A stretch of 64,000 nucleotides of DNA from Oculina patagonica (Eukaryota), in assembly GCF_052425735.1 (NCBI RefSeq), contig NC_135761.1, positions 33,666,001-33,730,000 of the forward strand, read 5' to 3'. The translations under genes and the position numbers were made by a program. The notes under the pieces were generated by a model. It did no database searches, had not been told where the DNA came from, and saw only the letters and a program-made list of their open reading frames with translations. Positions 20,243 to 42,115 of the stretch are shown one piece after another. Within the stretch, counting starts at the first letter, position 1. Each line of letters starts with the position of its first letter.

Positions 20243-20688
20243 AGTAGTTTACCGGGAATGGGTAGACCAATTTATTCATGAATTCAACAGGCCTGAGTTA
20301 ATGAGCTCTGTATATCCAGAACTGGTTTAATGAGATTCGTGTCACGCAGGTATAGGAGCTGGTTTAATGAGATGCGTGTCACGTTGGTTTATGGACAAAT
20401 TCAATGAGATACGAGTCATTATGCAGGGTATTGTTTTGAGTATTTATTGTTGAATATTACATGAGTTTTTAGGAGAGATGTTGGTGTTGTTATAGAGTTA
20501 TTGAACCACCCAACCAGCCGGGTAGTGATGCAGTTATATAGAAGGAGAACAAAGACTTGTAAAACAACCAATCAGGGAGTACCGTCAAACAAGTCAAACC
20601 AGTTTTGATTCCGGTTGGATTTGATTATTCAAAATGGCGCATGTATCTTGTTTGGTAGCTGGTCAAACCGGTTTTCAGGCTGGATAAA
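20243..20688 (+). repeat. Polinton left TIR (446 bp)
   Basis: Reverse complement of 37942-38212 plus 42116-42290, with about 5 mismatches counted by eye. Internal repeat GGTTTAATGAGAT.CGTGTCACG occurs twice. Confidence 0.95.
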
Positions 20689-20767
20689 TGTTTTCAAAAT
20701 GGTGTCTGGAAAACTTTAAATAGGGTTTGTACGCAAGAGAAAAAAAAAATCATTTATAAACCAAGCA

Positions 20768-21160
20768 ATGGAGTGCCTGATACAGAAGCAAAGTCTTGCT
20801 TTGCAAGTGGAAGCTTTATCAAAACGGATGCAGCGTCTAAATATGGAGGATAAGGTGGTGACCTTATTGAATAAACTTTGGGATAAAATGTGTATGAACA
20901 CAACAGCACGACGACCTGTTGAAATCACGTGTGAAGATCATGGCATGGAATTCTCGGTTGGCGAATTAATGGTTCCAACATTTTACTTTATGAACGAAGA
21001 GAAATTTTGGTCAAAGCTACAGTATGTTTTTAAGTTACAAGTACAATCAGAACATTGGCTCGAGACTTCAATCTACCATCACTTTGTGAGCGACTGGAAT
21101 ACGGACCCTTTCATACCTTGGTATTGGAAACGTCAAGGAAAACACACATTTGGACTGTAA
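20768..21160 (+). CDS. Polinton accessory ORF, 130 aa, unknown
   Basis: Intact ATG-to-stop ORF directly inside the left TIR, with TATA-like TTTATAAA at about 20753. Confidence 0.55.
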   Translation: MECLIQKQSLALQVEALSKRMQRLNMEDKVVTLLNKLWDKMCMNTTARRPVEITCEDHGMEFSVGELMVPTFYFMNEEKFWSKLQYVFKLQVQSEHWLETSIYHHFVSDWNTDPFIPWYWKRQGKHTFGL

Positions 21161-21344
21161 AGCGAAAATTTGTTTGTTTACAGATATTTATTTTCATTTG
21201 TCATATAACGTTTCTAAGTATTAACAATAAAAAAGGAAAACATAGAGAAAACTGCGCTATATTACATTGCTGTATAATTTGTGCAAAAAAAAAGAGAGTA
21301 AATTTAAACTTGTAAAGTGAAAAGCTGTTGTATTTACAATTGAA

Positions 21345-21629
21345 TAGCATGCATTTACTTCAGTTATTAAATGCAATACAAATCGTGAGTTTGCATTTAC
21401 AATAAGACCAATAAAAAAATAAAACAAAACAAACTGTCAGCATTGTTTGAGACTGACAAGCAAAGTCACCCGACATAATACTGAAAAATCCTTTGTGTCA
21501 GTCTCAAACAATGCTCACAGTTTGAATTATTGTTACACAACGATTTGTGTGCCGCTATTCGTCTTACTATAAATGCAAACTCGTGTTTTTGAATCGCATT
21601 TAACCCCGTTCTGAAGTAAATGCATGCTA
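21345..21629. repeat. Imperfect inverted repeat (foldback) spanning the RING gene stop codon
   Basis: 21431-21458 pairs with 21496-21523 (27/28), and 21345-21363 pairs with 21611-21629 (19/19). The segments between also align. Confidence 0.88.
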
Positions 21630-23165
21630 GACATCTTTCCTGTACTTCGGTCTCTGGATGTCTTGTTGCGCAAATCTGCCAGAGAAACAAAAATAGGTAA
21701 AATTAATAACAAATTAATAATGAACAAAACAGGATTTAAACAATTAGTTTCCTTCAATTAATTTCTTACCTGATTCAAGCGCATCATAACTCTTTCATCT
21801 GCCTCTATGAGTTCCTGATTTGGAAGTTTATATGCGCGGGTACAAAAAGGGCAACCTGCAGCCCTCATGGATCTCGAACGTTTCCATCTGAAATAAAACC
21901 AAATGTAAAGCTGAGCGAATTGTAAACAATACACTAACAATTAAAATGCAAAGCGAAGCGAAATGTAAACAATGCGTTCAACAATTAAAAGAAAAAAATC
22001 TCAACTAAAAAAAACAGCGCGCTTTCTTACCTTCTAATACATTTCTTATGTACTATAGTATCGCAACAGCGCGTCATCGGTAGATTAAAATCGTCGTCCA
22101 TACATATCATGCAAGTGTTCAAAATCTGCAAGATAAATCATATCATTCAGCCCGGTATTTTATCAAAAGAAATGAATTCTATTGAGAAACAATGAGTAAT
22201 TCCCTCATGGGAAGTATTTCTTTAATTACATAAGCCATGTAATGAATTACACATTGATTGCGTTTAATGAAATAACTTTTAATTAAACTTTACCAGAGAA
22301 CGTTACTCTGAAAATTACTCTGTTAATAACAGTAGAGGGAACATCATTTCCTTAAATTAACTTTTACATGTATACTAAAGAAAATGTCTTATCCTAACTG
22401 CACCCTTTTTTTTTATATAAAAATGGTTTTTTTAACTTCTTTTTAGAAAGGGTCAAGGCGTTATTTGAAAAGAAAATTTGTCAAAACGACGTTTGCATAT
22501 GCTTGAGTGAAATGCGTAAATTCCAATAAAGTAAGCACAGATACTCTCCAAATAACAGTAAACACGGAACTCTCGGTAGCGCAAAACGAGTGTTTAAATT
22601 TTCTTTCTTCGTTTATTGACGGCGTGATGTATCTTCGCATTTCAATACTTTTTGGCGCGCGTTTGCAAAACGCTTTCATAACACCTAAACAAAATAAAAC
22701 CTAATTTCATACCAGCAGAGTTACAATTTAATTCGAAATCAGGGTTCATTCGAATACGTTGCTATATGAAAAACGAATATCCTAAATTAAATCGGTTTTG
22801 GCTATTTGTATCTCACTAAAGTTCAAGATTTTTGGCGCGCATTTTGTTATAAAAGGTAAACGGAAAAAAAAAAGATTTGTTCAGGAAATTACGCATGTAA
22901 ACAAACTTCAGCCAAAACGGTTTTGAAATGTTTTTCCTAAACGAACCCTCTACTTTAAACTCTTTCCGTTTTTTATGATTCTTATAAACTTTGAAGTTTT
23001 GGCGCGCATTTTCAAACCAAACCCGACTTAACTTTGAAAAAGAAATCTACATTGCATAAACAGAGCTACTACTACATGGAAATTACTCTACAAAACAGAA
23101 CAGAACAGCCAACACATAAATTTACTTACCATTTGCACAATAACTTTAGTGATTTCAACATCCAT
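21466..23165 (-). CDS. Spliced 4-exon RING-finger protein (152 aa) with a C-terminal TAZ-like Zn motif; exons 23165-23130, 22125-22031, 21887-21770 and 21675-21466
   Basis: All three introns are GTAAG...YAG and phase-compatible (0, 2, 0). The product contains CMIC-x11-CC-x4-H-x2-C-x15-CPFC, then CLAC and H-x3-C-x5-C-x2-C. TATA and CCAAT lie upstream. Confidence 0.85.
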
Positions 23166-23855
23166 GATCGATAGCAACAAAATCAGCGACAGAAGTATAA
23201 TCACCAAACAGCAACACAGGTAGAGAGAGCAAACTGCGCGAGGCTTGGTTTATTGCATTCGCTTTATATAAAGCTATTCCTTCATGTTTATTGGTTGTGT
23301 TTATACAGAATGTGTATTCCATTTGCTGATTGGAAGATTTGGAACCCTTTTTATTCCGAAGTCAATGCGAAAATTGTACATCAGTTTTGTAAATCAGTAA
23401 AGGTAAAGTTATTTGCATAAGTAGCCCTTATCACAAGTTTATTAGCATAAGTCAACATTACGGTTGTCAACAACGTTTCGATAAAAAAAAAAAGATATAT
23501 CATATATTTAAACTTCTATTGATTTCTTTTCGTTTCTCAGTTCGTTGAAAGCTGTACTATTTGATTGGCGCATTTAAATAAACCGTAGGCCTAACGGTCT
23601 TGCAAATAAGATCGTTGCAAAAATAAATGCATGATTGGTTCATTTAAAATATTTTCGCTTGGAAAGCGTCCTTCCTAAATCCGGTGAGAAAGCTGTTAAA
23701 AAAAATGTAGAAATTGATTGGTCTGTGTAAAAGACAGAGCTTGTTTAACGGCGTCAGGATTAAAAACCAAACCGGTTTTTATAGCGTCATTTGACCAGTA
23801 AAATTTGCTATAAAAATGACATAACAGTTAAGGTTTTTAGTATACATTCAGAAAG
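23166..23855. promoter_or_regulatory. Divergent promoter region between the RING gene and the acidic ORF/pPolB unit
   Basis: TATA boxes at about 23265-23272 (palindromic GCTTTATATAAAGC) and 23809-23815. Several ATTGG/CCAAT boxes (about 23290, 23328, 23564, 23633, 23718). AACCGGTT at 23770. Confidence 0.6.
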
Positions 23856-24842
23856 ATGAACAGACAAGTCAAGTTTAACCCTGAAGTCAAACGCGCTGTT
23901 TTCAGTACGTTGAAGAGTACGCACCGATGTCTTGAACATCTTGCAAATACACGGATAGTTGAAGAAGACGAAATCGCTTCACGTAGTTCCGAGTTTCAGG
24001 AAGAGAACCGCGCTCAAAAGAGGGCTTTACACGAATATCATTTATCACGAAAGCGATGCCGCCTTTTTTTGCGTCAAGATATCTTTGATGCATTTTGGAG
24101 TGTGTATGAGCATGAAGCATGGAGTAGATTGGAAGAGTTAGTTGGAACTCCTGATGTGACGGTCAACGATGTGGAGATGTTTGGTCTCGAAGCCGTTTTG
24201 TCTGTAAATAAAAATGAAATTGTGAAGTTATGGCGTGAAAGACTTATGCTAATGATTCCGTCAGTGTTACAACATGAATTGGTTCCATTTCACGAGCGTT
24301 GGGTTCAAGACCAATTTAAAGATCAAGCAAACATTGAAGAAATGCAAAGGAGATTGTGTGCAAAAGCAAACACTTCAAATCACTGGCTGACAGAACTTGT
24401 AAATGAAATGCTTGTATCTCCTGACACTCCATCAACTCCTGAAATCAACTATGAAAACCTATCAGGTGCGTTAAATGAACTCGAAGTTGCTCATCCGGAG
24501 ATTTTTCAAGACTTGCATTCGTCCGTTGAATCTACTAAAGTAAACAATCCAGATGAATGCCTTGACACCCCACCAACACCTGAACTCAGATATGACAGAA
24601 TGTCGCAAGCACTAAATGAGGTGAACTATATCAATGACGACATATGCGAAGATACACCGTTGATTGTGGAATCCGCTCTTAACGTCCACGAACTGGATGC
24701 CCTACAGAACGAGAGCGAAATGTATGAAGCAGAAGAAACAGAATCAGATGATACACTTATAGAGGCGATGCAAGATTGGGAAGAAAAGGAAATAGAATCA
24801 GTCTTTGAAACCTGAAATTATGAACATCTTTTGGAAGACAAA
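23856..24842 (+). CDS. Acidic 319-aa ORF, possibly exon 1 of the pPolB polyprotein
   Basis: ORF 23856-24815 has an internal peptide repeat (DTPSTPEINYENLSGALNE / DTPPTPELRYDRMSQALNE). A consensus GTAAGT donor lies at 24843, just after the stop. Confidence 0.6.
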
Positions 24843-24902
24843 GTAAGTCATTCTTAAATCTATAACAATTATATTAAACTCGCTTGAATAGTTTGTTGTT
24901 CC

Positions 24903-25420
24903 TGCAAGTTACATAGCCTCGCTTTCATGACTCAGCTAAACAGTTAATTAATTATGAATATGTTAGTCACACAGCCTCGCTTCCGTGTCTTAGTTAAACG
25001 GATTATTATCTCTGTAAGTTACATAACTGAAATACGACTCTGCAAGTTACACAGCCTCGCTTTCAGGACTCAGTTAAACAATATTATCTCTGTAAGTTAC
25101 ATAACTGAAATACGTCTGCAAGTTACACAGCCTCGCTTCCGTGTCTTAGTTAAACGGATTATTATCTCTGTAAGTTACATAACTGAAATACGACTCTGCA
25201 AGTTACACAGCCTCGCTTTCAGGACTCAGTTAAACAGAATATTATCTCTGTAAGTTACATAACTGAAATACGACTCTGCAAGTTACACAGCCTCGCTTTC
25301 AGGACTCAGTTAAACAGAATATTATCTCTGTAAGTTACATAACTGAAATATGAGTCTGCAAGTTACACAGCCTCGCTTTCAGGACTCAGTTAAACAGCAC
25401 ATTTTCTCTGTAAGTTACAT
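24903..25420 (+). repeat. Tandem repeat with a unit of about 80 bp, about 7 copies, two subtypes
   Basis: The core AGCCTCGC recurs at about 24916, 24973, 25053, 25129, 25209, 25289 and 25369. Confidence 0.92.
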
Positions 25421-25471
25421 ATTGAAGTGATGTTTTATTTTGCATTATTTGATTTTATTTCTTATTCTCAG

Positions 25472-28400
25472 CTCACTTTTGTGTCATCAGAATGAAAATG
25501 ACGTTTGCCTTAAGTCCTCAGAGCAAATTGGCTCTGGCAGGGACCTGTGGAAATCTGACAAACACTATACTCTTCGAGAAATAGGTACAAGAAAAGTACG
25601 AAAATTCAACACTATGAGCACCGATTATCACTTCTCACTGAAACTGCAGACAGGTGGAACCCCTCTTTTGAGTCAACTTGGTAACATTTTCGATTCTCTC
25701 GTGGAGGAAATGAGCACAGGCATGGGCGAAAACGATTTGGTAAGATTTGTCTTACAAAGCCGATCCCTTGATTATCCTATTTCTCTACCATTTATGCCTC
25801 GTCATGAATTAAATGCAGAGAGGATCATGGGAGAAGTGCAACGCGTTTTGCAGTCCAATGAAAAAGTAAACTTAAAAGATGGGATGCACGTTCATTTAGT
25901 GCATGTTGGCATGCCGCAGGGTGGAATTGCTACACGCAAAAGAAAACATTACGGTTTTAACTTGTCCAAGTTCCTGGATGCCAAGAAGTGTGTCATTCGT
26001 ATCCGAAACAAAGATTCCTTGTGCCTCGCTCGTGCGTTGGTGACAGACATAGCTCGCCAAGAAGCAAGTCCCGACTGGAATTCAATTCGACAAGGACGTG
26101 AGCTGCAAACCATTTTGGCTAAGGAACTGCACTAGAAGGCCAAAGTTCCGGAGGGTCTCTGTGGTTTACCCGAAATTGCTAAGTTCCAGGCAGTCATCGA
26201 AGATTATCAAATCGTTGTCCTCTCTGCTAAACATTTTAACGCTGTTATTTTTGAAGGACCAAAGCGTGAAAAACAAATCTATCTGTATCTTTACGAAAAC
26301 CATTTCGACATCTTAACTTCTGTTTCTGCCTTTCTGGGAAAAGGCTACTGGTGTTTGGAGTGCAAGAAAAGTTACAACAACAAAGAAGACCATCGTTGCA
26401 ACAAAGTTTGCAAGTGCTGTTTCACAGAAGGATGTAACGGAGTGAAAATGAAAGAACCGTGGCGAGAGAATGTGGTACCTGTCATAGACTGTTTGCAGGA
26501 GACGAATGCTATGCCAATCACTGCCGTCCAAACAAAAATGGTCAGTCGGTATGTCAAAGATTCTACAAATGCACAAAATGCCAAAAAATCTTCTCGCACA
26601 AACGAAGAAGCCCAGAAGATCACCAATGTGGTGAAAAGTTGTGTTTCAACTGTGAAGAATATGTGGATCCCAACACGCACCTCTGTTACATGAAACCGAT
26701 CAAGTTTGAGGATGACGAACAAGAAGAAGAAGAAGAAGAAGGACAAGGAAAAAAGAAGAAAAACAAAGGTAAACGAAGACGCCTTTCAGAAGAAATGTTT
26801 TCTGACGAAGTTGAAGAAGACTACAATATTGAAGAAGAAGCAGAACAGGAATATTTATTCTTTGACATAGAAACACGCCAGGAAGAGGGACGTCACATAG
26901 CAAATTTATTAATTGTACAAGACGAGACGGGATTTGAAGTGGTGTTTAAAGGAGACGATTGTGTCGAACAGTTTGGGTCCTGGTTATTAGACGGAACGCA
27001 CGCAGGTGCCATTGTTATCGCGCACAACTTCCGCTCTTTTGACGGAATACTGTTGTGTGAGTATTTCTATAAGCAATGCATTCTTCCAACGTTGATATTA
27101 AATGGCGCAAAGATCATGTCCATGGACCTCGAAGAAGCCGAAATCAAGTTCCGTGACTCACTGAATTTCTTACCGATGCCTCTTAAAGCCCTGCCTAAAA
27201 CCTTTGGGTTAACTGAACTAAAGAAAGGTTATTTTCCCCATTTCTTCAACCGCCAAGAAAATCAAAGCTACGTTGGTCCTCTTCCTCCAATCGAAAACTA
27301 AGACCCTGACGGTATGAGCGGTAAAGAGCGCCAAGAGTTCTTGAGGTGGTATGAAGAGAAGAAGAATAATGATTTCACGTTTGATTTTCAAAAAGAGATA
27401 GTGGAATACTGTCGAAGTGATGTTGACATTCTCCGACGATGCTGTCTACATTTTAAACAGCTAATGGAAGAAACTTGCAATCTGGATCCTTTCAAGTACT
27501 GCATCACGATTGCGTCCGCCTGTAATTATGTTTTTCGGCAAGAGTTCTTAGAAGAAGAAACAATTGGTCTTGTTCCACCTCAACGATACCAACCTGCTCG
27601 CAAACAATCCGTACCCGTACCCGTATCCGGTGCCCGTATACTCCATGCATTGAACGGTGGAGAGCAGCGGATCGATGGTAATTATGTTGACGGTTATGAT
27701 CCTGACACAAAGATCATTTACGAGTTCATGGGCTGTATGTGGCATGGTTGCGCCAAATGTTTCTTACCTGATACCAAGAATCCGGTGAATGACACCAGCA
27801 TGGAAGACCTTCTTGAGGGAACCATCCGTAAACTAGAACGCTTCAAGAAGTTGGGATACCAAGTGGAAGTCAAATGGGAATGTGAATTCAGGCACGAGCT
27901 TGCCAATAGTCCAGACATGAGAGACTTCATCCAAAACCTCAAATTTGATACTCCCTTAGAGCCTCGCGATGCGTTTTTTGGTGGAAGGACCAATGCCACG
28001 TGTCTCTTCAAAGAGGTGAAGAGGATGAGAAAATTCATTACGTAGACTTTACCTCCTTGTACCCTTTCACGAATAAATATGGAAGCTTTCCTATCAAACA
28101 TCCCGAAATTTTGACCAGTGAAGCTCTCATCAACCGCTCTCCCACTGAATTCTATGGTCTGATCAAATGCAACATTCTCCCACCATCATCCCTGTTTCAT
28201 CCGATGCTACCCTACCGCGCCCAAGGAAAATTGATGTTCCCATTGTGCAGAACGTGTGCCGAGAATTTACAACAATCACCCTGTAAACACAACAAAGAAG
28301 AACGTATGTTGTCTGGAACTTGGTGTTCCATTGAGGTCGTAAAAGCTTTGGAAATGAGATATCGTATGGTCCGAATGGTGGAAGTTTGGAATTTCCCCGA

Positions 28401-29292
28401 AAAGTCCTCGAAGCTGTTTACCGGATACATAGATACCTTTCTGAAAATTAAACAAGAAGCAAGCGGGTGGCCATCATGGTGTCAAACAGAGCAACAGAAG
28501 AGGCAATACATTAGGGACTACGAACGAAAAGAAGGAATCAGATTGGATTATCATAAGATTCGAAAGAACCCTGGGCTTCGTTCGTTAGCCAAACTCATGC
28601 TTAACTCCTTTTGGGGAAAATTCGGGCAACGTGACAACATGCCTCAAGTCGAGCTTGTCAGGGATCCCGAGCGCTATTTCAGGCTTCTCACCTGTCAGTC
28701 TACCCAGATAAAGAATATTCAGTTTGTCAACGATGAATGCATTGAAGTGTACTACACTCAAGGAGAGGGATTTGTTCCTGCTTCCAACAAAACCAATGTT
28801 GTGATTGCTGCCTTCACTACAGCTCAAGCCCGTCTGAAACTGTACTCTGTTCTTGAACAGTTGCAGCATAGAGTTCTCTATTTCGACACTGACTCTGTCA
28901 TATTTACAAGTCAACCGAATGAATGGATGCCCCCGCTTGGTGATTACTTAGGAGAACTCACTAATGAGCTTGACAATGATGACTACATTACCACCTTCGT
29001 TTCAGGGGGCCCGAAAAATTATGCGTACCAAACCAAGAATGAAAAAACAAGTTGTAAGATTAGGGGCTTTACGCTTAACCATAGAGGTTCACAGAAGCTC
29101 AATTTTCAGTCCATGTGTGAACAAGTCTCCCGCCCTAATGGAGAAGTCATCTACTTGGAAAACCCTCATTTCATCAAACGGGACGCGAAAACAAAAACAA
29201 TATACACAGTGAAACAGGAAAAGAAGTATCAACTTGTGTACGACAAGAGAGTAATCCATGGTTACATCACTTACCCCTACGGATTTCGCTGA
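25472..29292 (+). pseudogene. POLB: Protein-primed family B DNA polymerase with N-terminal OTU-like protease, Zn fingers and a VSR-like insert; disrupted
   Basis: OTU Cys and His motifs DSLCLARAL and NHFD, exonuclease FFDIET and AHNF..FDG, YCRSDV, YEFMGCMWHGC, FFGGRT, DFTSLYP, KLMLNSFWGKFGQ, YFDTDS. Stops at 26133 and 27299, frameshifts near 26467 and 28015, in-frame lesion near 27615. Confidence 0.95.
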
Positions 29293-29372
29293 CTGGTGAT
29301 TGTCGCCAGTTGGGATGGTTATAAGGCGAGGTTGGAGGCTACACTAGGCTCAAATCACGTTGAACTTTCAAC

Positions 29373-29648
29373 ATGGACAGACTGTATTTTCATCTAGTGC
29401 GTGTCTCCGCTAAACGCCATTTCTCTCGATATGCATTCCGTAACATACCACCTGAACAATGGTCATCTCTTCTCAAAGAAATAGAACCAATGAATTATGG
29501 TCGTTTATTGTGCTTCTACGCCTACATGGATCACTGCAGCGTCACTTTTAGTGAACAATACGAATTTCACAAAACATTATGCGATCAATACCCATCGCAT
29601 TATCCCTCTATCTGGTGGATGCTTCTACAGGTTATAAAAAGCAGATAA
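29373..29648 (+). CDS. Polinton accessory ORF, 91 aa, unknown (aromatic-rich)
   Basis: Intact ORF with a good CAACATGG start context, in the gene-dense interval between pPolB and integrase. Confidence 0.55.
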   Translation: MDRLYFHLVRVSAKRHFSRYAFRNIPPEQWSSLLKEIEPMNYGRLLCFYAYMDHCSVTFSEQYEFHKTLCDQYPSHYPSIWWMLLQVIKSR

Positions 29649-29679
29649 AATCTATTTTGCTATCATTTACAGTTCAACC

Positions 29680-29895
29680 ATGGGCAACTTCACAAGTCGG
29701 TTATGCCAATCCCCTGTTCCAAACCTATCCTTTAAAGAAATGTGTCAGAGGATGTGTTGCTTAGTTGTCTGCTGTGATAGTCAAGTGCACATTGATTATA
29801 GCGATGCCTCAGATGAAGAAGAACAAGAACAAGAAGTCCATGAACGAGAAATCTCGCAAGAAAGTGTATCAACTTTTAGAGAAACTGTATTATGA
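29680..29895 (+). CDS. 71-aa protein with N-myristoylation motif, Cys cluster, acidic tract and C-terminal PDZ-binding motif
   Basis: ACCATGG start context; MGNFTS...MCCLVVCC...DASDEEEQEQE...FRETVL-stop. Overlaps the integrase start. Confidence 0.6.
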   Translation: MGNFTSRLCQSPVPNLSFKEMCQRMCCLVVCCDSQVHIDYSDASDEEEQEQEVHEREISQESVSTFRETVL

Positions 29896-30921
29896 ACAAG
29901 ACCGTCCTTCTGCTTTGGGTGGTGTAGAAAAGTTGTATCGTGTGGCGCGTCAACATGGAATAAAACGTAAGCAAGTTCTTCAGTGGTTACAGCAACAACC
30001 TGGCTACACCCTTCATAAACCAGCTCGTAAACGGTTTACTCGTAACAGAGTGTTTGTCAATGGATTAGACCAGCAATGGCAGTGTGACCTTTGTGACGTT
30101 TCAAGTCTGAGTCGATGGAACCGTGGACATAAGTACATACTCACATGTATCGATGTCCTATCTAAGTACGCTTGGGCCGTGGCCTTAAAAACAAAAACGG
30201 GTTCTGCGTTGGTGGCGGCCTTTACAAAAATCTTTCAGCAAGGAAGAAAGCCTGAAGTTTTGCAATCCGATGCTGGAACGGAATTCAAAAATAAAACGTT
30301 TCAAACGTTTCTCAAGAAGCATGACGTTCGCCATTTTGTCACGTACAACGAAACGAAAGCCCAGATCGCGGAACGTTTTAACAAGACGTTAAAACAGTTG
30401 ATGTGGAGGATGTTTACCACTAGCAGCACAAGCTGGATAGTTTGGTTAACGATAACTACAATCAGAGCGTTCATCGAAGCATTAAAATGAAACCCATTGA
30501 TGTCAACGTTTTTAATGCACAAAAAGTGTGGCGAACCTTGTATGGTAAGCAATTCTCACCCAAACAGTATAAATTCAATGTGGGCGATCAAGTCAAGATC
30601 AGTAAGTACAAGAAAGTCTTTGAGAAAGGTTACCTCCCATCGTGGACCGAAGAAACTTTCACAATTGGTCAAAGACTTCCACGAAATCCACCTGTGTATC
30701 GTTTAAAGGAAGCAAACGGAGACTGGATTCAGGGTACATTTTATGAAGCTGAGCTACAGAAAGTTATTGAAAAAGCAGATCACCTGTTTCGCATTGAGAA
30801 AATTTTGAAAAGTAGAGGAAAAGGAAAACAGAAAGAAGTTTTAGTGCTTTGGAAAGGCTGGCCGAGATCCTACGCAAGCTGGCTACCCTCTAAACAGTTG
30901 GTTTTGTTACAACAAGCATGA
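29840..30921 (+). pseudogene. INT: Retroviral-like (rve) integrase with C-terminal chromodomain; frameshifting deletion near 30430
   Basis: YTLHKP, WQCDLCD, CIDVLSKYAW, LQSDAGTEF, AERFNKTLK, KGYLPSWTEE.F, and chromodomain IEKIL...LVLWKGWP...SW. Confidence 0.93.
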
Positions 30922-31771
30922 TACAAGACGATGACTTTTACGTGGTGCTTCCAAGCAACGCCAATACCAATTTGTTCCCAACCAATACAGAATCATTTTA
31001 CCGTGTGGCATTACCTCGACAAATCCAATTAAAGGATGAAGAAGATTGGGAAGTTGGACTTCATCATGTTATATATCCATTTTCTTGGTTCGAAGTGCCT
31101 CACGAATGCGACCATCCACACCTTTTGTTCCGACAATTTGGTACGGAAAAGGTACATGCAGCGACGTTACCTGTGGGAAGATATCAAACAGCCCTGGACA
31201 TTGTAGAAGGAATACTTCAATGTGTGAATCTCAAGTACTTTGACCTAACAGTGGATGATGAATGGAACATTACTTTCAAAACTCAGGATATCTGGGTTAT
31301 GGTTTCAACACCAGTCGCTCAAGCTCTAGGGTGGATAACCAGTGAAAACAAAATCCTTCAGAGTGAACTTCTGGTTTAAAAATTCTTTCCTCCTCGAAAG
31401 GGATTCCTTCAATGGAGAATGAAGTGTGCGTACTACCACGAAATTCTTCAATTACCTTTTCGGGTACCTTTCTTATACCCTCGAGCGTTTCTCTCTGTCG
31501 TTGCAGACACATAGTGGTGCAAGTACAAACTAATCTTATTGAGCCACGTCAAGTTGGTGAAAATCGTCTGCAAATGTTACACGAAATGGTACCAAGTGGC
31601 ATGTTTCGAGAAACATTAATGGAAGAGCCGCTACGTGTGAATTATCTTACGTTACGAACCAAAACATTCCAGACCATAGACATCTACTTAACCAGCAGTT
31701 GTGGTAAGCTACTTTCATTTCAAGGCGGAATTGTAAACATGACACTACACTTCAGACGACGCACAAGATGA
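30918..31771 (+). pseudogene. Minor capsid protein (penton) 1, frameshifted near 31375
   Basis: FYVVLPSNA...LP..I.L...WEVGL at the N-terminus, LHFRRR at the C-terminus. ATGA overlap with the integrase stop. Confidence 0.8.
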
Positions 31772-32649
31772 CCAACAGTTTTTATATCGTAGCTACAAGT
31801 GATGCGAGCAAGGAGCAGCACAGTAAAAACGCCGCTGCAAGTTTCAAAATGCAACTTCCAAATTAAGTGCATTTAAGTGAAGACTGGGAGGTTGCAATGA
31901 CTCACGTCATTTATCCACACACGTGGCACAATGTGAAACATCGTGAACTGTCTTACCTTCTAAGCTACCATGGTAAGGCATCATGGAAGCTACCAATTTA
32001 TCTACCGAGTGGAAATTATCAAACGCTTGAGGATTTAGTAAATGGCATGGTGACAGGACTGCACAGCTCGATTCTAGACATCTACCTTAAAAGTGAAAAG
32101 AAGATCAAACGCATTGGAGGAAAAGACTGTTTCTACATTTACCCAAAAGGCAGACATTATTACGAGTTCAATCTACCTCCAGGCTATCAAATAAGCCTAC
32201 CTAAGAATATAGCTAAGGCGTTAGGCTACTTAAACCATCAAAATCGTGTACCCACCCTTTATGAGATCCTTGCTCCTGCATCTATCCAGTTGAATGAGGA
32301 CCAAAGCATAACCCTTTCAGCAAACACCACCACCATGAAGCGAAATGATGAATTGGTATGGGGCATGTTGACCAGTCATTCTTTTCAGTCCATGTACATT
32401 TACTCGAATCTTATAGAGTCCCTTGTAGTGGGGAATGTACAAGCTAATCTTCTGAGAACAATAGTACCACGTGGTCGACCTGGTGACATGATTGCAGAAG
32501 AGATAAAGATACCTACCTATCATCGTCTCCGTACATCAGTCTTTTCGTCAGTGGAGATCAATATAAGGGGTGATACTGGTCAATTAATATCATTTACGTC
32601 TGGAGTCGTACGAGTAACATTGCATTTTAGACGTCGTGCAATTCTATAA
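31768..32649 (+). pseudogene. Minor capsid protein (penton) 2, premature stop at 31864
   Basis: FYIVATSDAS...WEVAM...MYIYSNLIE...VGN..ANLLR...TLHFRRR. ATGA overlap with penton 1. Confidence 0.82.
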
Positions 32650-32650
32650 C

Positions 32651-33109
32651 ATGATCCTACCAATGAATTATCAGTTTTATCCTTACCAAAGACAAGTCAT
32701 TCCCTTTTCGCAACGAGGCAAGGGAGCTATAAGTATCTTTGGAGGATCACATCCTTACGGTCAAGGAGGCAATGGATTAGGTGGAATGTTTCGTTCACTC
32801 TTTCGCACAGCTACACCCTTTCTCAAAACAACAGCTAAGAAAGTAGGAAAACGATTGCTCAACACTGGTCTAGACACAGGAATGCAAATTGCAAAAGATG
32901 TTATCAATGGGCAGTCGGTTAAGAAGGCTACAAAGTCAAGAGCAAAGGCTGCCGGGAAAAACTTTTTGACAGGTGCCATTCAGGACATTACGCAGCAAGG
33001 GCGTGGGCGAAAAGTACTTAAACGCAAACGGAAAGCTACTCCAGCCAGTTCAAGACAGGCCAAGAAACGGAGAACATCAACAGCAAAGTTCCAAACGATT
33101 TTTGACTGA
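32651..33109 (+). CDS. Basic virion core / membrane-lytic (cupiennin- or pVI-like) protein
   Basis: QxGxG-type motifs (QRGKG, QGGNG, QQGRG), an amphipathic segment GLGGMFRSLFRTATPFLK and a basic tail. Sits in the conserved position before MCP. Confidence 0.75.
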   Translation: MILPMNYQFYPYQRQVIPFSQRGKGAISIFGGSHPYGQGGNGLGGMFRSLFRTATPFLKTTAKKVGKRLLNTGLDTGMQIAKDVINGQSVKKATKSRAKAAGKNFLTGAIQDITQQGRGRKVLKRKRKATPASSRQAKKRRTSTAKFQTIFD

Positions 33110-33111
33110 AT

Positions 33112-34440
33112 ATGGCTTCAGCACACCCTCTCTCTGTTCCTGGGGAAAATTCGAGTTTGCAACTGTTTCAAGTACCAGTCACTGATGTTTCTGTTGTGAA
33201 AAGCAAATGGGTTGACTATGAACCTGTTCAAAGTGGAACCAACCCTATTGAGTTTGTTATCAAACCACTCTCAGACTACATCGACATAAACAAAACCGAG
33301 TTGAGATTCGTGGTGAAGATAAGTAAACGAAACGGAGCTGATCTCACTGCAGGAAAGAAATATACATTGATAAACAATGCCCTTCATTCTCTCATCAAGC
33401 AGTTCACCATCAAGTTAAATGAAACACTTGTTACAGAACAATCAGACACCCAAGCTTACAATGCCTACATCAAGACCTTGCTAAATTTTACTGAACAGGC
33501 CAAGAAATCTTATTTGACCAAAGCACTGTACTATAAGGACAGCGCAGGGCATATGGACGAAGTGGATAACACGTCAGAGAATAACTGGGGACTCATGAAG
33601 AGAGGAAGATTTACCAGTGAAAGTGCTGAAGTAGGGTTAGTCGGTGTTCCTCTGTGTGATCTGTTCAACACGAATAAGTTACTGCTGGACAACATAGAAA
33701 TCAAGATCAAGATTGATCTGAACAATGATGACTTTGTTCTTATGAGCGGTGAGGAAGGAAACGATTGCAAGTTACAACTGGTATCAAGTACCCTCAGAGT
33801 GCGCACAGTACGCGTAGCAGACAGCACGAAACTAGAGCACCTTAATATCATGCAAGGACGGTCGGGGCAAAAAGCGCTTCCTGCAATCTACACTTTAACA
33901 AGAACTCCAACGCACTCCAGGATCATTCCAAGTGGAGTATTGAATCATACAGAGACAGATCTTTTCAATGGGCTTATTCCTCAATGCATTATATTTGGAA
34001 TGGTACGAAACGATGCTTATAACGGCAACCTGAAAAGAAATCCCTTCAACTTCCAACTGTTTGGTCTGAATGCTGTTCGAGTGACACTCAATGGCGAAGA
34101 GATCCCCTACTCAGTCATAGACTTGACGGGTGGTAAGAAAATCGATGGGTACAATACCCTCTTCTCAGGTAGTGGCGACATAAACTGTGGACACGGTATA
34201 GACATTGACAGAGAAGATTGGGAAGCAGGATATGGACTTATTCGTTTGGACACAACGCCTGCTGGTAGTGGCCATCCCGACCACTTAATTCCTCACCGTA
34301 GTGGCAACGTGAACCTCTATCTCCAATTTGGTACTCCCACACCTTTGGTTCTCAATTTAATCGTCTACGCTGAATTCCAAAATCATTTGGAAATTGACCG
34401 TAACAGAAGAGTGGTGTACGATCTATCTCAAGGAGCATAA
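33112..34440 (+). CDS. PY: Major capsid protein (double jelly-roll, hexon/PY), intact 442 aa
   Basis: LQLFQVP.T...PIEFVI...YIDI..TEL, NNALHSL, AYNAYIKTLLN, AYNG..KRNPFNFQ, YAEF.N.LEID..R.V. Confidence 0.92.
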   Translation: MASAHPLSVPGENSSLQLFQVPVTDVSVVKSKWVDYEPVQSGTNPIEFVIKPLSDYIDINKTELRFVVKISKRNGADLTAGKKYTLINNALHSLIKQFTIKLNETLVTEQSDTQAYNAYIKTLLNFTEQAKKSYLTKALYYKDSAGHMDEVDNTSENNWGLMKRGRFTSESAEVGLVGVPLCDLFNTNKLLLDNIEIKIKIDLNNDDFVLMSGEEGNDCKLQLVSSTLRVRTVRVADSTKLEHLNIMQGRSGQKALPAIYTLTRTPTHSRIIPSGVLNHTETDLFNGLIPQCIIFGMVRNDAYNGNLKRNPFNFQLFGLNAVRVTLNGEEIPYSVIDLTGGKKIDGYNTLFSGSGDINCGHGIDIDREDWEAGYGLIRLDTTPAGSGHPDHLIPHRSGNVNLYLQFGTPTPLVLNLIVYAEFQNHLEIDRNRRVVYDLSQGA

Positions 34441-34442
34441 AG

Positions 34443-34982
34443 ATGCACACGACTCAAGAGCTGTGGCAAGCTTCATTACAAGATCACGTGCTTGCAGCCC
34501 AAATGAGAGGTGTTTTTCCCAGTGACAAGTTGCCCGTCATAGAGACCTATCCTTCAGCTCTGATTGCAAATACGGATCCCCACGATCAACCAGGCACACA
34601 TTGGGTTGCAATGTACTTTGTAACACCCTATGAAAGTAAATTCTTTGATAGCTACGGATTTCCTCCTGAGACCTATGACATGGATGGATACATAGTTCGA
34701 GAAAATACTTACTATAACGACAAACCGATGCAAGGTCTAAACAGCGATGTATGCGGAGACTACTGTTTGTTTTACTTGCTTCACCGAGCACGGGATGTGG
34801 ATTTGAACACTATTCAAACAAAATTTAGACGATATGATTCGCAGTGGAACGATACACAAGTGGCACATTTTGTACACAGCTATGTTCATTCGATTACTAA
34901 GAATAGCAATGTAACACTTCTTAAAAGTGAGCAGCAAGTTTGTAAGTCATTTCAATGTTGGCGTAAGCAATCAATAAACTAG
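34443..34982 (+). CDS. PRO: Adenain-like cysteine maturation protease, intact
   Basis: ANTDPHDQPGTHWVA, FFDSYG and Q...S.VCG.YC supply the His/Asp/Gln/Cys catalytic set. Confidence 0.93.
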   Translation: MHTTQELWQASLQDHVLAAQMRGVFPSDKLPVIETYPSALIANTDPHDQPGTHWVAMYFVTPYESKFFDSYGFPPETYDMDGYIVRENTYYNDKPMQGLNSDVCGDYCLFYLLHRARDVDLNTIQTKFRRYDSQWNDTQVAHFVHSYVHSITKNSNVTLLKSEQQVCKSFQCWRKQSIN

Positions 34983-35046
34983 TTTTAAAAGGAAAATAAT
35001 CTGTGTGTTTTTGTAAAGGGGGACTGATGCGTAAACTTATCAATTG

Positions 35047-35748
35047 ATGTCTGCTTTCGTTAGCGACAACATGTCTCAATTTAAATGCCCAAGCAGTATT
35101 ATTATAGCTGGCCCTAGTCAGTGCGGAAAAACGACATTTACGAGACAATTACTACAACAGGCGGATTCTTTATTTGAACGCCCCATTCGTAAAATCGTAT
35201 ATTGTTACGGACAGTGGCAGGAATGTTTTAAAGACATGACCTCACAAGTAACATTTGTTGATGGTATTCCCGAAGATATTCCCAGTATGTTTCCACCCAG
35301 TTACCGTCCAGGAATTCTTGTACTGGACGATCTTATGAGGAACTGTAGCGATGACGAACGCATCGTTGATCTGTTTACTAAAGTTTCCCATCATTGTGAT
35401 GTGACCTGCATCTATTTGACCCAGAACCTCTTTCCACCTGGAAAGTTTTCTAGGAGTATCTCTTTGAATGCCCATTATATTATTGCTTTTAATAACCCTC
35501 GCGATACCTTGGGTTTTCGAACATTGGCTCAACAAGCATTTGCAGGAAAAGTTCCTTACGTATTGGAAAGTTTTGAAGATGCCACATCCAACCCGTTTGG
35601 TTATCTCGTTATGGACTTACATCCTCGAACACCAAACATTCAACGACTACGAACAAAAATATTACCGACGACCCATTCTTATCCCATGGTTTACGTAGAC
35701 AAGAAAATGCATAAAACTGATGAACCCCTGCCTGTTGATATCAGTTGA
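35047..35748 (+). CDS. ATP: A32/FtsK-like genome-packaging ATPase, intact
   Basis: Walker A GPSQCGKT, Walker B LVLDD, TQNLF...SRSISLNAHY...NPRD. Confidence 0.93.
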   Translation: MSAFVSDNMSQFKCPSSIIIAGPSQCGKTTFTRQLLQQADSLFERPIRKIVYCYGQWQECFKDMTSQVTFVDGIPEDIPSMFPPSYRPGILVLDDLMRNCSDDERIVDLFTKVSHHCDVTCIYLTQNLFPPGKFSRSISLNAHYIIAFNNPRDTLGFRTLAQQAFAGKVPYVLESFEDATSNPFGYLVMDLHPRTPNIQRLRTKILPTTHSYPMVYVDKKMHKTDEPLPVDIS

Positions 35749-35752
35749 AATC

Positions 35753-36217
35753 ATGACTTCGAACAAAACACATTGCAAAGCCAAACGTCCAAGAAAGACT
35801 CAACGTGGTGGTAATATGGTCTTGCGCTCAGGTACGACCACTCAATTGCAGCGGGCAGCTAAAAAGCGTCATAGAATTTCCAAACATTCAAAGGTGAAGC
35901 AACATTTACCGTTCCTTTGTACCTGTTTTAAAAGCAATGGAAAACAAAGAAAAGACATGATTGCGCACGCAAACAAAGGACAGATGGAAGCTATTGGTGA
36001 GATCGCACTAAATCTCCTTAAAGGAAACATTGTGGTACCTAATTCATCATTTAAACGGTTGAAGCCTCACAAGTCAAAGCTCCTTTATCTCACTCGTAAA
36101 ACACCAAGTCTCAAACAGAAAAAGGGTGTGCTTAATCAGAAGGGAGGATTTTTACCGGCTCTCGCAACATTGATTGCTCCTCTTGCTGTGGATTTGTTGG
36201 GTAAAGTTTTCAAATGA
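35753..36217 (+). CDS. Basic core protein with protease sites and a C-terminal amphipathic helix
   Basis: K/R-rich, with TQRGG and NQKGG|FLPALATLIAPLAVDLLGKVFK; EIALNLLKGNI is a motif seen in Polinton core proteins. Confidence 0.75.
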   Translation: MTSNKTHCKAKRPRKTQRGGNMVLRSGTTTQLQRAAKKRHRISKHSKVKQHLPFLCTCFKSNGKQRKDMIAHANKGQMEAIGEIALNLLKGNIVVPNSSFKRLKPHKSKLLYLTRKTPSLKQKKGVLNQKGGFLPALATLIAPLAVDLLGKVFK

Positions 36218-36768
36218 AGCACGCTCAGAAGATGTTGATGGTTCCTGAACATTTATTGCAAAGTATGGAAACAGAACATCGATTAACGGCTCCTCCACAA
36301 CTCACAACTTTAACAAGGCTAGATCAAGACATGAAACAAATCATGGAGTCCTCTTTACCGGAAGATCACAAAGTAATGTTGTTGGATCAACTTCTGCAAA
36401 GGTATCAGGGATTAACGAAACAGATGAAAAGTGAAGCAAACGTAAAACCTACAGTGGTTCTACCAAAAACAGATCCGCAGCCTCCAACAGATACAACTCC
36501 TGGTGTAAACAATCGTGCCTCCACACCTAAAGTTAAGACTACAAGAGAAACACCAAGACAACTTCCACCCACACCCGCGACTACTAAACAATCGAAAATT
36601 CCTGTCAGAATGGAAACACCCCTCAACGCATTGTCTGAAGAATCGGCGTACGCGATAATGATGGAAACACCCCCAGATTCCAAACGCAAATCTGTGAAAC
36701 GGCTTAAAAAACCAAAAACGCCTTTAGTGGCAAGGTTACGCAGCAATAGACAATGGGAACCTTACTAA
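36214..36768 (+). CDS. Polinton conserved hypothetical protein, 184 aa, P/T-rich C-terminal half
   Basis: ATGA overlap with the previous gene; helical LTRLDQDMKQIM...K..L..Q.LQRY; ends QWEPY. Confidence 0.7.
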   Translation: MKHAQKMLMVPEHLLQSMETEHRLTAPPQLTTLTRLDQDMKQIMESSLPEDHKVMLLDQLLQRYQGLTKQMKSEANVKPTVVLPKTDPQPPTDTTPGVNNRASTPKVKTTRETPRQLPPTPATTKQSKIPVRMETPLNALSEESAYAIMMETPPDSKRKSVKRLKKPKTPLVARLRSNRQWEPY

Positions 36769-36852
36769 ACCAGGAAAACCGGTTTTTATTTGCCGACTCT
36801 ATATATATATATACACAACGACTGTACGCTCATTTTCATTTTGCTTTACACG

Positions 36853-37239
36853 ATGGTGCCAAATATTGCAAACGATACTTGCTACGAGTGTGATTGTATC
36901 GAAAAGATGAAGCATGCTTACTGGAATTCGCTAGCGTATTTGGTGTACGCTGAACTTGAAAAACAAGAACCCGGTGTTATTCAAGACAATCAAAAACTGA
37001 TGACATGTCTACGCGAATCAGTGGATAATAGGAAACCAATTGCATACTGGCTCTGGCAGGATCTACTAGACATATTGGAGTTCACTGCTCCTGAAAATCA
37101 AGACTGGATCGATGACACTTCTCCAGAGGAACAAGAGGATGCCATCATTAAAGCCATCATAAATCCGGACGAGTTTGGCAAAACCTGTTGGTACTGGTTA
37201 GATCTGATTGTTAATGGAATTGACGAAGTTGACCGGTAA
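36853..37239 (+). CDS. Acidic accessory ORF, 128 aa, unknown
   Basis: Has its own TATA at about 36800 and AACCGGTT at 36777 upstream. CYECDC near the N-terminus. Confidence 0.6.
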   Translation: MVPNIANDTCYECDCIEKMKHAYWNSLAYLVYAELEKQEPGVIQDNQKLMTCLRESVDNRKPIAYWLWQDLLDILEFTAPENQDWIDDTSPEEQEDAIIKAIINPDEFGKTCWYWLDLIVNGIDEVDR

Positions 37240-37305
37240 AACCTGTTTAGCTCCATAAAAACTATATAAAGAATTTGTGTTTCCACTCTCAAGTCATACT
37301 TCAAG

Positions 37306-37773
37306 ATGAGTTATTCACAGTGTGGACTTTGCCTTAAAGATCTTGAATTGATCAAGCCTGCCTCAGGTATACCTTACATTCGATGTATAGACTGGAAGTT
37401 GTGTCCTTTCTTTTGCCGTGAAGAAGACGTGCACGCTTATCAACAATGTATCAGAGATCGCGTAATACCAGAATACATTGCATTTGAAGGTGGGCAGTTG
37501 CCTTACTGCAGACACATGGATGTTGCGACATTAAGAGTATCAAGGTCACAGAGCAATCCTTTCAGACCCTATTTCACCTGCAGGAGGAGTAAAGAAATGT
37601 GTAGATTCTTTCAGTGGGCAGATGAAACACCGATTGACGATGAACGTAAAATACCGTCACCAACGTACTGCCCTGAGGAAAACAAGCCATCAAAAGGAGT
37701 GAAAACCAAGTACACGCCACGACCCAAGCTACAAAGACAATTTGCCGTATCAGAAAAGTTGGCTCATTGTTGA
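37306..37773 (+). CDS. GRF-type zinc finger protein, 155 aa
   Basis: CRH...LRVSRSQSNPFRPYFTC.....CRFFQWAD matches zf-GRF, with an additional N-terminal CxxC...CxxxxxC. TATA at about 37263 and AATAAA at about 37878. Confidence 0.85.
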   Translation: MSYSQCGLCLKDLELIKPASGIPYIRCIDWKLCPFFCREEDVHAYQQCIRDRVIPEYIAFEGGQLPYCRHMDVATLRVSRSQSNPFRPYFTCRRSKEMCRFFQWADETPIDDERKIPSPTYCPEENKPSKGVKTKYTPRPKLQRQFAVSEKLAHC

Positions 37774-37941
37774 CTCATTGAACATTTATTATTGTATTAG
37801 CAACATCACTGAACAATTAATATTTATTCATATTTAATCATATTCATGTTTGAGGTTGTACACTTTTTCTATACTCAATAAATGTTTTTTTACTTACTTT
37901 AAAAGATTGTGTGGATTTTAATTCGCCATTTTGAATAAATT

Positions 37942-38212
37942 TTTATCCAGCCTGAAAACCGGTTTGACCAGCTACCAAACAAGATACATGCGCCATTTTG
38001 AATAATCAAATCCAACCGGAATTAAAACTGGTTTGACTTGTTTGACGGTACTCCCTGATTGGTTGTTTTACAAGTCTTTGTTCTCCTTCTATATAACTGC
38101 GTCACTACCCGGCTGGTTGGGTGGTTCAATAACTCTATAACAACACCAACATCTCTCCTAAAAACTCATGTAATATTCAACAATAAATACTCAACACAAT
38201 ACCCTGCATAAT
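37942..38212 (-). repeat. Polinton right TIR, inner part
   Basis: Reverse complement of 20418-20688. Confidence 0.95.
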
Positions 38213-41200
38213 CTGCCTCGTCCCCAGGCGCTGATTGGCCGGACGTTGAGGCGGTAAGGCGGGAAAACAGGGAGCGCGGGGATTGATGGTTAGGGAGCGA
38301 GCCGCGGAGCGCCTGGCAGATCTTGCATTCAATATGGCGGACCAAAATGTCATCAACTCTGAAATGTGTAATAAAAACAGCAAAAGAGCCGTCTATTTAG
38401 CATTTTTACAGCACAGAGCGCCTTGGACACATCTTTTATGAAAAATATTCTTATTAAGACGACGGAATTCACCACCATTTTCGCACGCTTCATGTCCCAG
38501 CTCAGCTTGAGAAGAGCCAGGAGGAGCGTACGAGGCACTCTGTGAAGTTAAAAAAGCTTTAAATCCTTTACGGCAAAGAGACGTTGAAATGTCTAATGAC
38601 ATTTTCCGAACTCCAAGAGAGACAGGTACTCATTTCCGTTTATCAAAGTTGTCTTGTAAATCCGAGTGTAAATGACAAGAAAATTAGTTATCCTTTCCAT
38701 TATTGTTTTGTGTAGAATTTTTTTCGTAGAGCCCGAGAGTTAGTTGCCTTTTAGTTATTCCATGGACGCTCATTTAAGCCAGACGCGACAAAGATAATGC
38801 AACAACAGTATGAATCCATCGATACAAATAACAATTCATCTGTCTTTGGGATGTCATTTCTACTATCTCTGGTTTACTTCAATAAAATGTTAATTATCTG
38901 CTTATCAGTAATCAAGCACAACCTTTGATAGTTGCTTTATTAATTGAAAATAAAATTACATTAAAAATGTTTGATATCATAACTGTAATTTTTTTCAATG
39001 CAATTTTTTTATTGATTGCCAGTAGGTGACTTTTTTCCCATTAAACCACAATTTATTAAGGATAAATACACATTTTTTTGTTAAGCATTGTGGCAGTGAG
39101 TGTGCCATTTATGCTGTGAATGCAACTGAAAAACTAAATTGTTTGGAATGTACCCTATGCCATGCCATGCAGGCTTTTAATTTGGGGGCAGGTGCAGAGA
39201 GCATTTCTGATGAATGTGACACTGTTTTCATGAAGTTTTTAGAATGGTTCATGTGCGGTATATGATTTAAGATCATCTTGAAATCTTGCTTTGTAAAAAT
39301 GGAAAGATAATTTTTCTCATAAATATTTATGTATTAATATGCAAGGCTAGCATCTTTGGACATCCAAGGCCCACCATCATTCTATTCTAAATAATTCTAG
39401 TAACAAACCCCTCTTAATTTTTTATCACTCTCCTGTAATTCTTTACAAATTTAAAATAGTACATGTATTTGTAAAATTCTTTACTTTTTTAGCCACTGAA
39501 AAGAAATGTTTACTTTGTGCTTGCAAATTTGGTGTCTAAAGGCCTTTGTTATGCTCCCACTGACTTGATATTAACTAATTACAAAAGGAGCTGGGGTGAA
39601 CTGTACATGGAGGGTTGAAGAGGGTAGTAAATCACTTTAGAAAATCAATCAAGTTAATTTTCAGGAGAAGGGTAACTATTATGTCTAGATCATAATCAGA
39701 TGAAGGGCACCACCAAGGAAATTGTCGTACAAACAGTAATTCTCAGATTATCTCATGCACAACTTATTTAAATTCACAGTAGGTTAAGGCCATGCAGGTA
39801 AAACCCTCCTGGCTAGATAACCTTTGCAAATTGAAGGGAAATGTCTGAATGGTTTTGCAAAATCAGTACTACTAAAAATATTTTTAAAAATGTAAAAAGG
39901 TATCTTTTTCTCTTACAACAGCTGTTGTCATGGGTATAAAGCAGCAGGGTAGGCAAAGCATACATTCAACATTTAAAGTGTTTTAATTGTTTTCCAAGAC
40001 TGCTAGAGGCAGTGGGCTATTAGCAGACTGGGGAAAAAGTGGCAACTCCAGGTTTGCCGGTTTATTTATTTTAATCAAATTGAATATGGTTAGCCAGGAG
40101 TTGCCATGTTCACATGAAATGCAGTTAAGAGTCAGTAACAAACCCTTTGATGTAAAATTGCCTGGCATCTCAATTTATTTTCCTACACTATCTCAGCCAT
40201 AAAATCTTGGGCCGGCAAAAATGATTCAAGTTTTGCTGTCTGTCATAGTCCAGTGTTTTGTTACCCTTAGGAATAAAGTTTTGCCACACATTCTCTAAAA
40301 ACACCTACTAAAAAACTCTCCCTGTGACACTACAACTAGAAAAAACTATATTTTTTTTGTTACAAGTTTGGCAAAGTCTTATCCTGCTTAAATCCTCCAA
40401 AAGAGTGACCAAAACCTTATTTCTCCTTACAGTATCAATGCATTATCAAGCAGTACAGTGACGAGAAACACACAAATTAATCAGCGGAGAGTAATTTCGA
40501 TATTAACACTTGAATCAGTAAAAAGAAATTTTGAGTAGGATCTGCCTCCTCTGGTCACTAACACATTAAGTGCTGAAATAAACAGAGCTACGCAAAGTTG
40601 AAATTTCAATAATTGTACTTTCTGTCAAGAAAGGTAAATTATGAGGTTAACCTAGCTAGAATAAAATATCAGCACACATTATAATTGTTTATGTGTCATG
40701 TTCTCATAAGATCTCCTACGTTGGACAACATTAATTTGATAAAACACTTGTTAGCACTTGAACGGCTCTCTCTGGAGCGCTGCTTATAGACTTTATAGCT
40801 GAAGTTTAACGGCCAAGAGGTACAAATAAAAGTATACCGAAATGTAAGGAAGCTAAGCACTGCTCAGAAACGAAACAAACCAGCTCTGGCATCGATTGAA
40901 GCGAAACTTACCCTCAGTTCGAAGCTTATAAAGAAATTTAATTTTCTAACGACGGCAGAGATTCTTAGTTTAGTTTAGTTTAGTTTTTTTTTTAGTTTTT
41001 TTTTTTTTATTTTTTTTTTTTTTTTTTTTTTTTTTAGATTCTTCTTAGTTTATTGCAAACAAAAAAGAAAAAAAAAAACAGCTACATACATGTACAATGT
41101 GTCTGAGCTTTAAAAACAATACGGTACTTATTTACAGTGCTTGTTTATGTTAATTCTTTATCAGCTAAAATTCTTGTCCTTTCAACCATTATTTACAGAT

Positions 41201-42106: not shown

Positions 42107-42115
42107 CTGCATAAT

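Follow-up and report, generated by a model that had tools for sequence, protein, structure and literature searches.

A small ORF overlapping the integrase gene of an anthozoan Polinton encodes a predicted lipid-anchored protein ending in a putative class I PDZ ligand

Introduction

Proteins ending in the class I PDZ consensus S/T-x-hydrophobic-COOH have been described from several viruses, including E6 of high-risk HPV, HTLV-1 Tax (TEV) and adenovirus E4-ORF1 (TLV) (accessible text of PMC4810129). This use of a PDZ tail has so far been known mainly from human tumour viruses. Herpesvirus UL11, pp28 and BBLF1 combine small size with an MGxxxS myristoylation motif, palmitoylated cysteines, an acidic cluster and a disordered tail, UL11 being a tegument protein of an enveloped virus (accessible text of PMC9205190). 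Other viral proteins, for example lyssavirus P, bind LC8/DYNLL, for which the consensus is [DS]-K-x-[TVI]-Q-[TV]-[DE] (accessible text of PMC3078936).

Accessory genes have also been reported in adintoviruses, namely Oncoids, which are defined by LxCxE/CxxC motifs, Bcl2 homologs and genes named Adintoc, and the text of Supplementary Fig. S2 places 'Adintoc5:Bcl2' beside 'Integrase' (accessible text of PMC8502044); 'myrist' has no match in that text or in the readable supplement. Proteins of unknown function were frequent in a survey of coral polintoviruses (accessible text of PMC11131425), and the accessible text of PMC11071296 mentions myristoylation for Macc-class proteins only. No account of a Polinton protein that is myristoylated and binds PDZ domains or LC8 turned up in the literature searched, most subscription journals lying outside its scope. 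Here we describe a small gene from a Polinton of Oculina patagonica that is real and conserved and whose function is undescribed, although it may already bear an Adintoc name (Adintoc5 or Adintoc7) without a function.

Results

Host element and gene neighbourhood

The window, i.e. the whole 64,000-nucleotide stretch of DNA that was analysed and to which all positions refer, contains the following features:

20243..42290, no strand: host element, an integrated Polinton/adintovirus that has AGTAGT termini and long TIRs, is flanked by a 6-bp target duplication (GTATCC) and contains pPolB, integrase and a virion module
29373..29648, + strand: 91-aa upstream ORF carrying N-[WY]-G-R, a motif reminiscent of Bcl-2 BH1
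29633-29639: TATAAAA, putative promoter, 41 nt 5' of the small ORF ATG
29680..29895, + strand: 71-aa small ORF, accessory Polinton gene (ORF list, purifying selection, family searches)
29677..29697, + strand: ACCATGG, a strong context for initiation, followed by MGNFTS, an M-G-x-x-x-S motif for N-myristoylation that is conserved in relatives (consensus as in the accessible text of PMC9205190)
29731..29775, + strand: predicted amphipathic helix with the Cys cluster CCLVVCC at its end, candidate palmitoylation sites (CC conservation, hydropathy)
29803..29862, + strand: acidic linker of variable length, in the +1 frame the K/R-rich N-terminal extension of the integrase
29878..29895, + strand: C-terminal R-E-T-V-L-stop, class I PDZ-binding motif over integrase E-K-L-Y-Y-E
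29804..30921, + strand: integrase, rve and chromodomain, frameshifted near 30415-30430 (Pfam)

The element was assigned to the Polintons/adintoviruses by its matches to pPolB (PF03175) and to an rve integrase (PF00665) with a C-terminal chromodomain (PF00385), and by its long TIRs, its 6-bp duplication and its AGTAGT termini, which we take to be the Polinton terminal consensus. In the window copy pPolB is in pieces and the integrase is frameshifted, whereas the small ORF has remained intact. The N-terminal integrase extension, which contains 31-48% K/R at five loci, is possibly an NLS. The upstream ORF precedes the integrase in all elements examined, L022 among them, and its motif is conserved in relatives as [NY]-[WY]-G-R. 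Searched as a Bcl-2 protein it gave nothing significant in Pfam, in PDB sequences or in two fold searches; its models had a pLDDT of 46-51, and BCL-XL rows came up only at non-significant values (E 4-6).

The small ORF and its motifs

The features listed in the initial annotation, i.e. the ACCATGG start, MGNFTS, CCLVVCC (residues 26-32), SDEEE within the acidic tract, RETVL-stop and the overlap with the integrase in another frame, were all found in the letters of the window, and its reading of the tail as a class I motif is sound, since ETVL agrees with the S/T-x-hydrophobic-COOH consensus (accessible text of PMC4810129). The further claim that three such motifs would hardly coincide by chance held in Markov-shuffled copies of the element (n=300), in which 62 of 11,759 ORFs of 50-120 aa started with MGxxx[ST], 434 ended in [ST]x[VIL], two had both terminal motifs and none combined both with CC..CC, a null that is generous in that the motifs were picked after the small ORF had been seen. 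Among the 29 real ORFs of 50-120 aa in 20418-38212, the small ORF alone has either terminal motif.

In five family members the maximum Kyte-Doolittle 19-mer value was 0.76-1.23 and the helical moment about 0.5, and the D/E fraction of the tail was 0.34-0.40, a predicted profile that fits an amphipathic helix with an acidic tail and excludes a TM helix. A transmembrane or FAST-like protein was ruled out, as the hydropathy is too low and the helix too short and polar. With MGxxxS/T at the true start, conserved cysteines nearby and no TM helix, the product is predicted to be an N-myristoylated, S-palmitoylated peripheral protein. The window small ORF matched no Pfam family, the UL11 profile (PF11094) included, and none was significant for four relatives.

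Purifying selection and the protein family

Comparison with the DNA relatives L001-L003, which add two lineages to that of the window at about 77% nucleotide identity, gave dN/dS values of 0.011, 0.082 and 0.092 in three pairwise comparisons of codons 2-41, the part outside the overlap, where the window and L001 differ by 12 synonymous changes and one non-synonymous change. The same DNA in the other two forward frames gave 0.7-4.4, and the integrase core, which is constrained about as tightly as the small ORF, 0.08-0.13. Because dN/dS is this low in codons 2-41, the small ORF is, judged from its sequence, a real gene under strong purifying selection. A single 155-nt contig over 29676-29830 (depth 2.7) in the putative RNA run X17 was not counted as expression evidence.

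Protein searches gathered 161 proteins. The relatives number about 150 and reach down to about 36% identity over the N-terminal core. After 39 of 162 protein rows had been dropped (11 for lack of the anchor motif and 28 because no Met stood at the spacing expected, the MGCG group included), 123 full-length rows were kept, with 99 in clade A, to which the window protein belongs, and 23 in clade B, in which P0072 was not counted. Gly2 is present in 118 of these 123 relatives, MGxxx[ST] in 109, Cys9 in 119 and the CC pair in 112, as counted over proteins that share ancestry, and hence are not independent samples, and that come in many cases from decaying copies. The conservation of Gly2/Ser6 and of the Cys cluster, which had been put forward earlier as a check, was thereby borne out.

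Clade B splits off with bootstrap values of 94/84 in a tree on 45 columns, and one of its members (P0142) shares 36% identity with the window protein in the first 42 residues; the clade-B linkers vary in length, giving proteins of 67-96 aa. A third, more distant group (P0063, P0147, P0151 and P0156) has an MGCG start and a CL[LM]ACC core and is without the PDZ end, in place of which these four proteins carry a basic C-terminus with CCF/CRF. The homolog P0089 is annotated 'hypothetical protein [Rhodactis coral adintovirus]', which places it in the same virus group as the Oncoid, Bcl2 and Adintoc genes (accessible text of PMC8502044). Near-identical DNA was present, with shares of 0.70 and 0.52, in sequencing runs that carry the label coral metagenome, which together with the Rhodactis homolog points to an anthozoan host. 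A metagenome scan yielded 12 loci with L001-L003 as the only close relatives; L004 (44% integrase identity) has no comparable small ORF. Scanning of viral contigs with the integrase gave no relative, and with the small protein one weak match (L013). The gene is accessory, because element L022 lacks it despite having the upstream ORF and an intact integrase.

The C-terminal motif within the integrase overlap

The integrase ORF is read in the +1 frame from 29804 and has its first 92 nt in common with the small ORF, so that the integrase ATG sits inside the D42-A43 codons and the E-T-V-L-stop codons of the window coincide with integrase K-L-Y-Y-E. These residues leave only Leu for position 0 and Thr or Ala for -2, and synonymous-codon draws for LLEKLYYE (element codon usage) produced a class I end in 12% and ETVL-stop in 1.1%, the shuffled-tail null being 2.4%. 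In clade A, 62 of 99 rows end in ETVL and 71 have a class I end (one of these, P0047, owing to a chance read-through); they are distributed among many sub-lineages with 45-65% identity. The remaining 28 rows are without the motif; many of them appear truncated or frameshifted, and point variants in the clade comprise RNIVL (the Rhodactis homolog), RENAL, REAVL and RERAL. Val(-1) is nearly fixed (66/71), while PDZ domains usually tolerate change at -1; because this residue is no PDZ determinant, part of the constraint on the clade-A tail may be of another kind. Across the last 10 overlapped integrase codons a single wobble position varies among the three lineages, silently in both frames, compared with 43 of 116 downstream, a marginal difference (P about 0.05).

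The motif does not keep one place on the integrase. In the window, L001 and L003 it lies over KLYYE, 8 codons before the integrase GG motif, whereas in clade B it is found as ETEV-stop over KQRSR, 20 codons before GG (L014), and as ETSV-stop over KPPSK, 28 codons before GG (L020), the clade-B registers coming from these two loci only, both Polinton contigs in the genome bin G001; the L014 contig also bears capsid and PolB. In all, 22 of 23 clade-B proteins end in E/Q-T-x-V (ETEV, ETSV, QTTV), and in these 22 rows Thr(-2) and Val(0) are invariant, -1 is S, T or E and -4 takes six different residues. Since Thr(-2) and Val(0) are fixed and -1 is free in clade B, the tails show what is expected of class I PDZ ligands, and since the three registers involve different integrase residues, the integrase frame does not fully explain the motif. 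A motif kept while its place on the integrase shifted twice, with -2, 0 and the stop conserved independently of the overlap against nulls of 1-12%, behaves, as far as sequences can tell, like a class I PDZ ligand under selection.

The initial annotation had warned that the C-terminus might be wholly accounted for by the integrase frame, and this concern is answered by the three registers but retains some force in the window clade, where KLYYE favours a class I end. It had likewise made its reading depend on conservation of the ORF and of a terminal ETxL among copies; class I ends do prevail in both clades, but the RNIVL variant, the third group and L022 depart from this.

An LC8-type motif in clade B

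The clade-B linkers contain the core [TVI]-Q-[TV]-[DE] in 20 of 23 proteins and A-Q-T-D in the other 3, nearly always with Asp at -4. An LC8-type pattern that was widened after the sequences had been seen matched 22 of 23 clade-B tails compared with 1.7% of shuffled tails, and the strict consensus with Lys(-3) is present in one of the 23 (DKSTQTE). The motif occurs in none of the 99 clade-A rows, the window protein included.

Discussion

Our sequence data make it probable that the small ORF is an accessory gene through which anthozoan Polintons/adintoviruses produce a cytosolic motif mimic with a lipid anchor and a ligand for host PDZ domains. The small gene, whose translation is indicated by purifying selection on its sequence, would yield a protein that is myristoylated at Gly2 and palmitoylated at the Cys cluster on its amphipathic helix, as the conserved motifs suggest, and that is thereby held at the inner face of host membranes. 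Its disordered acidic linker, which varies in length and doubles in the +1 frame as the basic N-terminal extension of the integrase, would display the C-terminal class I ligand E-T-x-V/L, the key positions of which, according to the conservation pattern, appear to be kept for the small protein itself and not for the integrase alone. The tail may then bind host PDZ proteins and relocate or sequester them at the membrane, aiding the viral phase of the element jointly with the neighbouring Bcl-2-like gene. Polarity and junction scaffolds of the Dlg/Scribble/MAGI type would be the leading candidate partners, and they are plausible because the PDZ domains of Dlg and Scribble are conserved in cnidarians (accessible text of PMC9012326), but trafficking PDZ proteins would fit equally well. 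In clade B the LC8-type motif in the linker would dimerise the protein and raise its avidity.

The family shares its C-terminal S/T-x-hydrophobic motif with E6, Tax and E4-ORF1, and the TEV end of Tax equals the E-T-E-V end of several clade-B members (accessible text of PMC4810129). Adenovirus E4-ORF1 is likewise a small accessory protein from a related capsid lineage and acts with PDZ proteins at membranes. In contrast to these three proteins, with which it has no sequence homology, the small-ORF family consists of proteins of 70-90 aa without a folded enzyme-derived domain, carries a predicted lipid anchor, belongs to an invertebrate host and has its motif overprinted on an integrase. Like the LC8-binding lyssavirus P, clade B has D-x-x-[TVI]-Q-[TV]-[DE] in a disordered linker (accessible text of PMC3078936), to which it adds lipid-anchor motifs and a PDZ ligand motif, whereas the window clade lacks the LC8 motif.

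The same set of motifs could also serve transport. As a UL11-like trafficking or egress adaptor, the protein would be brought to Golgi/endosomal membranes by its dual lipid anchor and acidic cluster, where the PDZ tail (with the LC8 motif) would recruit PDZ proteins of the SNX27/GOPC/syntenin type and dynein-associated LC8 to move or release particles, not to disturb polarity. Acidic residues upstream of a PDZ motif suit SNX27-type binding, and UL11 ranked first among the ESM feature matches of the window protein, with a score of 0.85 that counts as a lead only, but this match was not reproduced with P0043, and Polintons are regarded as non-enveloped. Although the anatomy of myristoyl group, palmitoyl group and acidic cluster is shared with UL11 (accessible text of PMC9205190), sequence homology is absent, the Cys cluster of the small protein lies at 22-32 and not beside the N-terminus, and 'PDZ' does not appear in the accessible text of that review, so we regard such an adaptor as unlikely. 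A minor virion protein for membrane penetration, comparable to the myristoylated polyomavirus VP2 or the 'Macc' class and with an incidental tail, would account for the conserved myristoylation motif and the amphipathic helix, and myristoylated proteins of the Macc class have been noted in this group of viruses (accessible text of PMC11071296). The gene, however, adjoins the integrase, outside the virion module, and is missing from L022, and the three-register PDZ pattern and the LC8 motif are left unexplained, which gives this role only a small chance.

Equally improbable is that the lipid-anchored gene is real but that its C-terminal motif arises as a side effect of the integrase coding or a nucleotide signal, as the bias of KLYYE and the point variants without Thr(-2), the Rhodactis homolog among them, might suggest. 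Integrase residues and nucleotides differ among the three registers, the freedom of -1 in clade B goes together with fixed -2 and 0, and no Arg read-through at the stop occurs among the RETVL-type rows listed. We hold it to be very improbable that the small ORF is a piece of a larger protein, i.e. a leader of the integrase (by frameshift or splicing) or the tail of the upstream Bcl-2-like protein. Fusions to the integrase do occur (P0030, P0032, P0037, P0038, P0047, P0096, P0153, P0160 and locus L021), as do fusions to the upstream ORF (P0073, P0077, P0089, P0109, P0123 and P0132), but both are read as incidental, because the former all stop early or contain stops, as expected of decayed copies, and the latter represent one of three frame relations, the upstream ORF lying, depending on the lineage, in any of the three frames relative to the small ORF and being stop-separated from it in the window, L001-L003, L014 and L020. 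Moreover, a separate ATG opens the integrase in each of the five loci checked, and Gly2 is conserved although co-translational myristoylation would be impossible at a Gly inside a longer protein. A splice acceptor before the small ORF ATG was ruled out, the candidate TTTACAG not being conserved in L001/L002, and a search for longer proteins returned two matches and no full-length integrase fusion, which is weak evidence.

Taking the PDZ-ligand reading further, we suggest tentatively, and with somewhat less than even confidence, that the Polintons of corals and their kin possess a hitherto undescribed group of lipid-anchored proteins acting as linear-motif hubs, which combine myristoyl and palmitoyl groups, an acidic linker and a PDZ ligand, with an LC8 ligand in one clade. 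The family would have been born by overprinting on the N-terminal part of the integrase and would form, together with a Bcl-2-like gene, a cassette for taking over the host. If this is true, viral hijacking of Dlg/Scribble-type polarity scaffolds would reach back to cnidarian viruses, and there would be direct evidence of Polintons acting as cell-manipulating viruses in coral epithelia. A pure transposon would have no use for a membrane-anchored PDZ/LC8 mimic, and the gene would therefore support a real viral life of coral Polintons. The proposal names testable host targets, PDZ scaffolds and LC8, in animals whose tissue integrity underlies disease. The locus is also a clean case of dual coding, with one purine-rich tract read as an acidic linker and as a basic integrase extension and with a putative binding motif that moved between three registers, and most annotation drops overlapping genes of such a kind below 80 aa.

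Other observations

Within the element, about seven copies of a tandem repeat of ~80 bp lie upstream of PolB (24902-25421), and a GRF zinc-finger protein is encoded at 37306-37773 (+), to which a Cys-rich protein of L014 (925-1590, -) looks similar. The right TIR is split by a 3.9-kb insertion (38213-42106) with short terminal inverted repeats of its own and a 9-bp target duplication (CTGCATAAT). In clade-B elements a conserved ORF of ~250 aa with GGAxGxD (L014 1826-2605 (+) and the same position in L020-L022) precedes the Bcl-2-like ORF and occupies the place that PolB has in the window. Matches to Polinton capsid, PolB or integrase were found in contigs C2, C9, C36, C37, C61, C64, C109, C113 and C114 of G001, a bacterial MAG labelled Endozoicomonas sp., and these Polinton contigs are most likely host-derived contamination. 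To the left of the Polinton, the window contains another element with nested inverted repeats (7859-17426).
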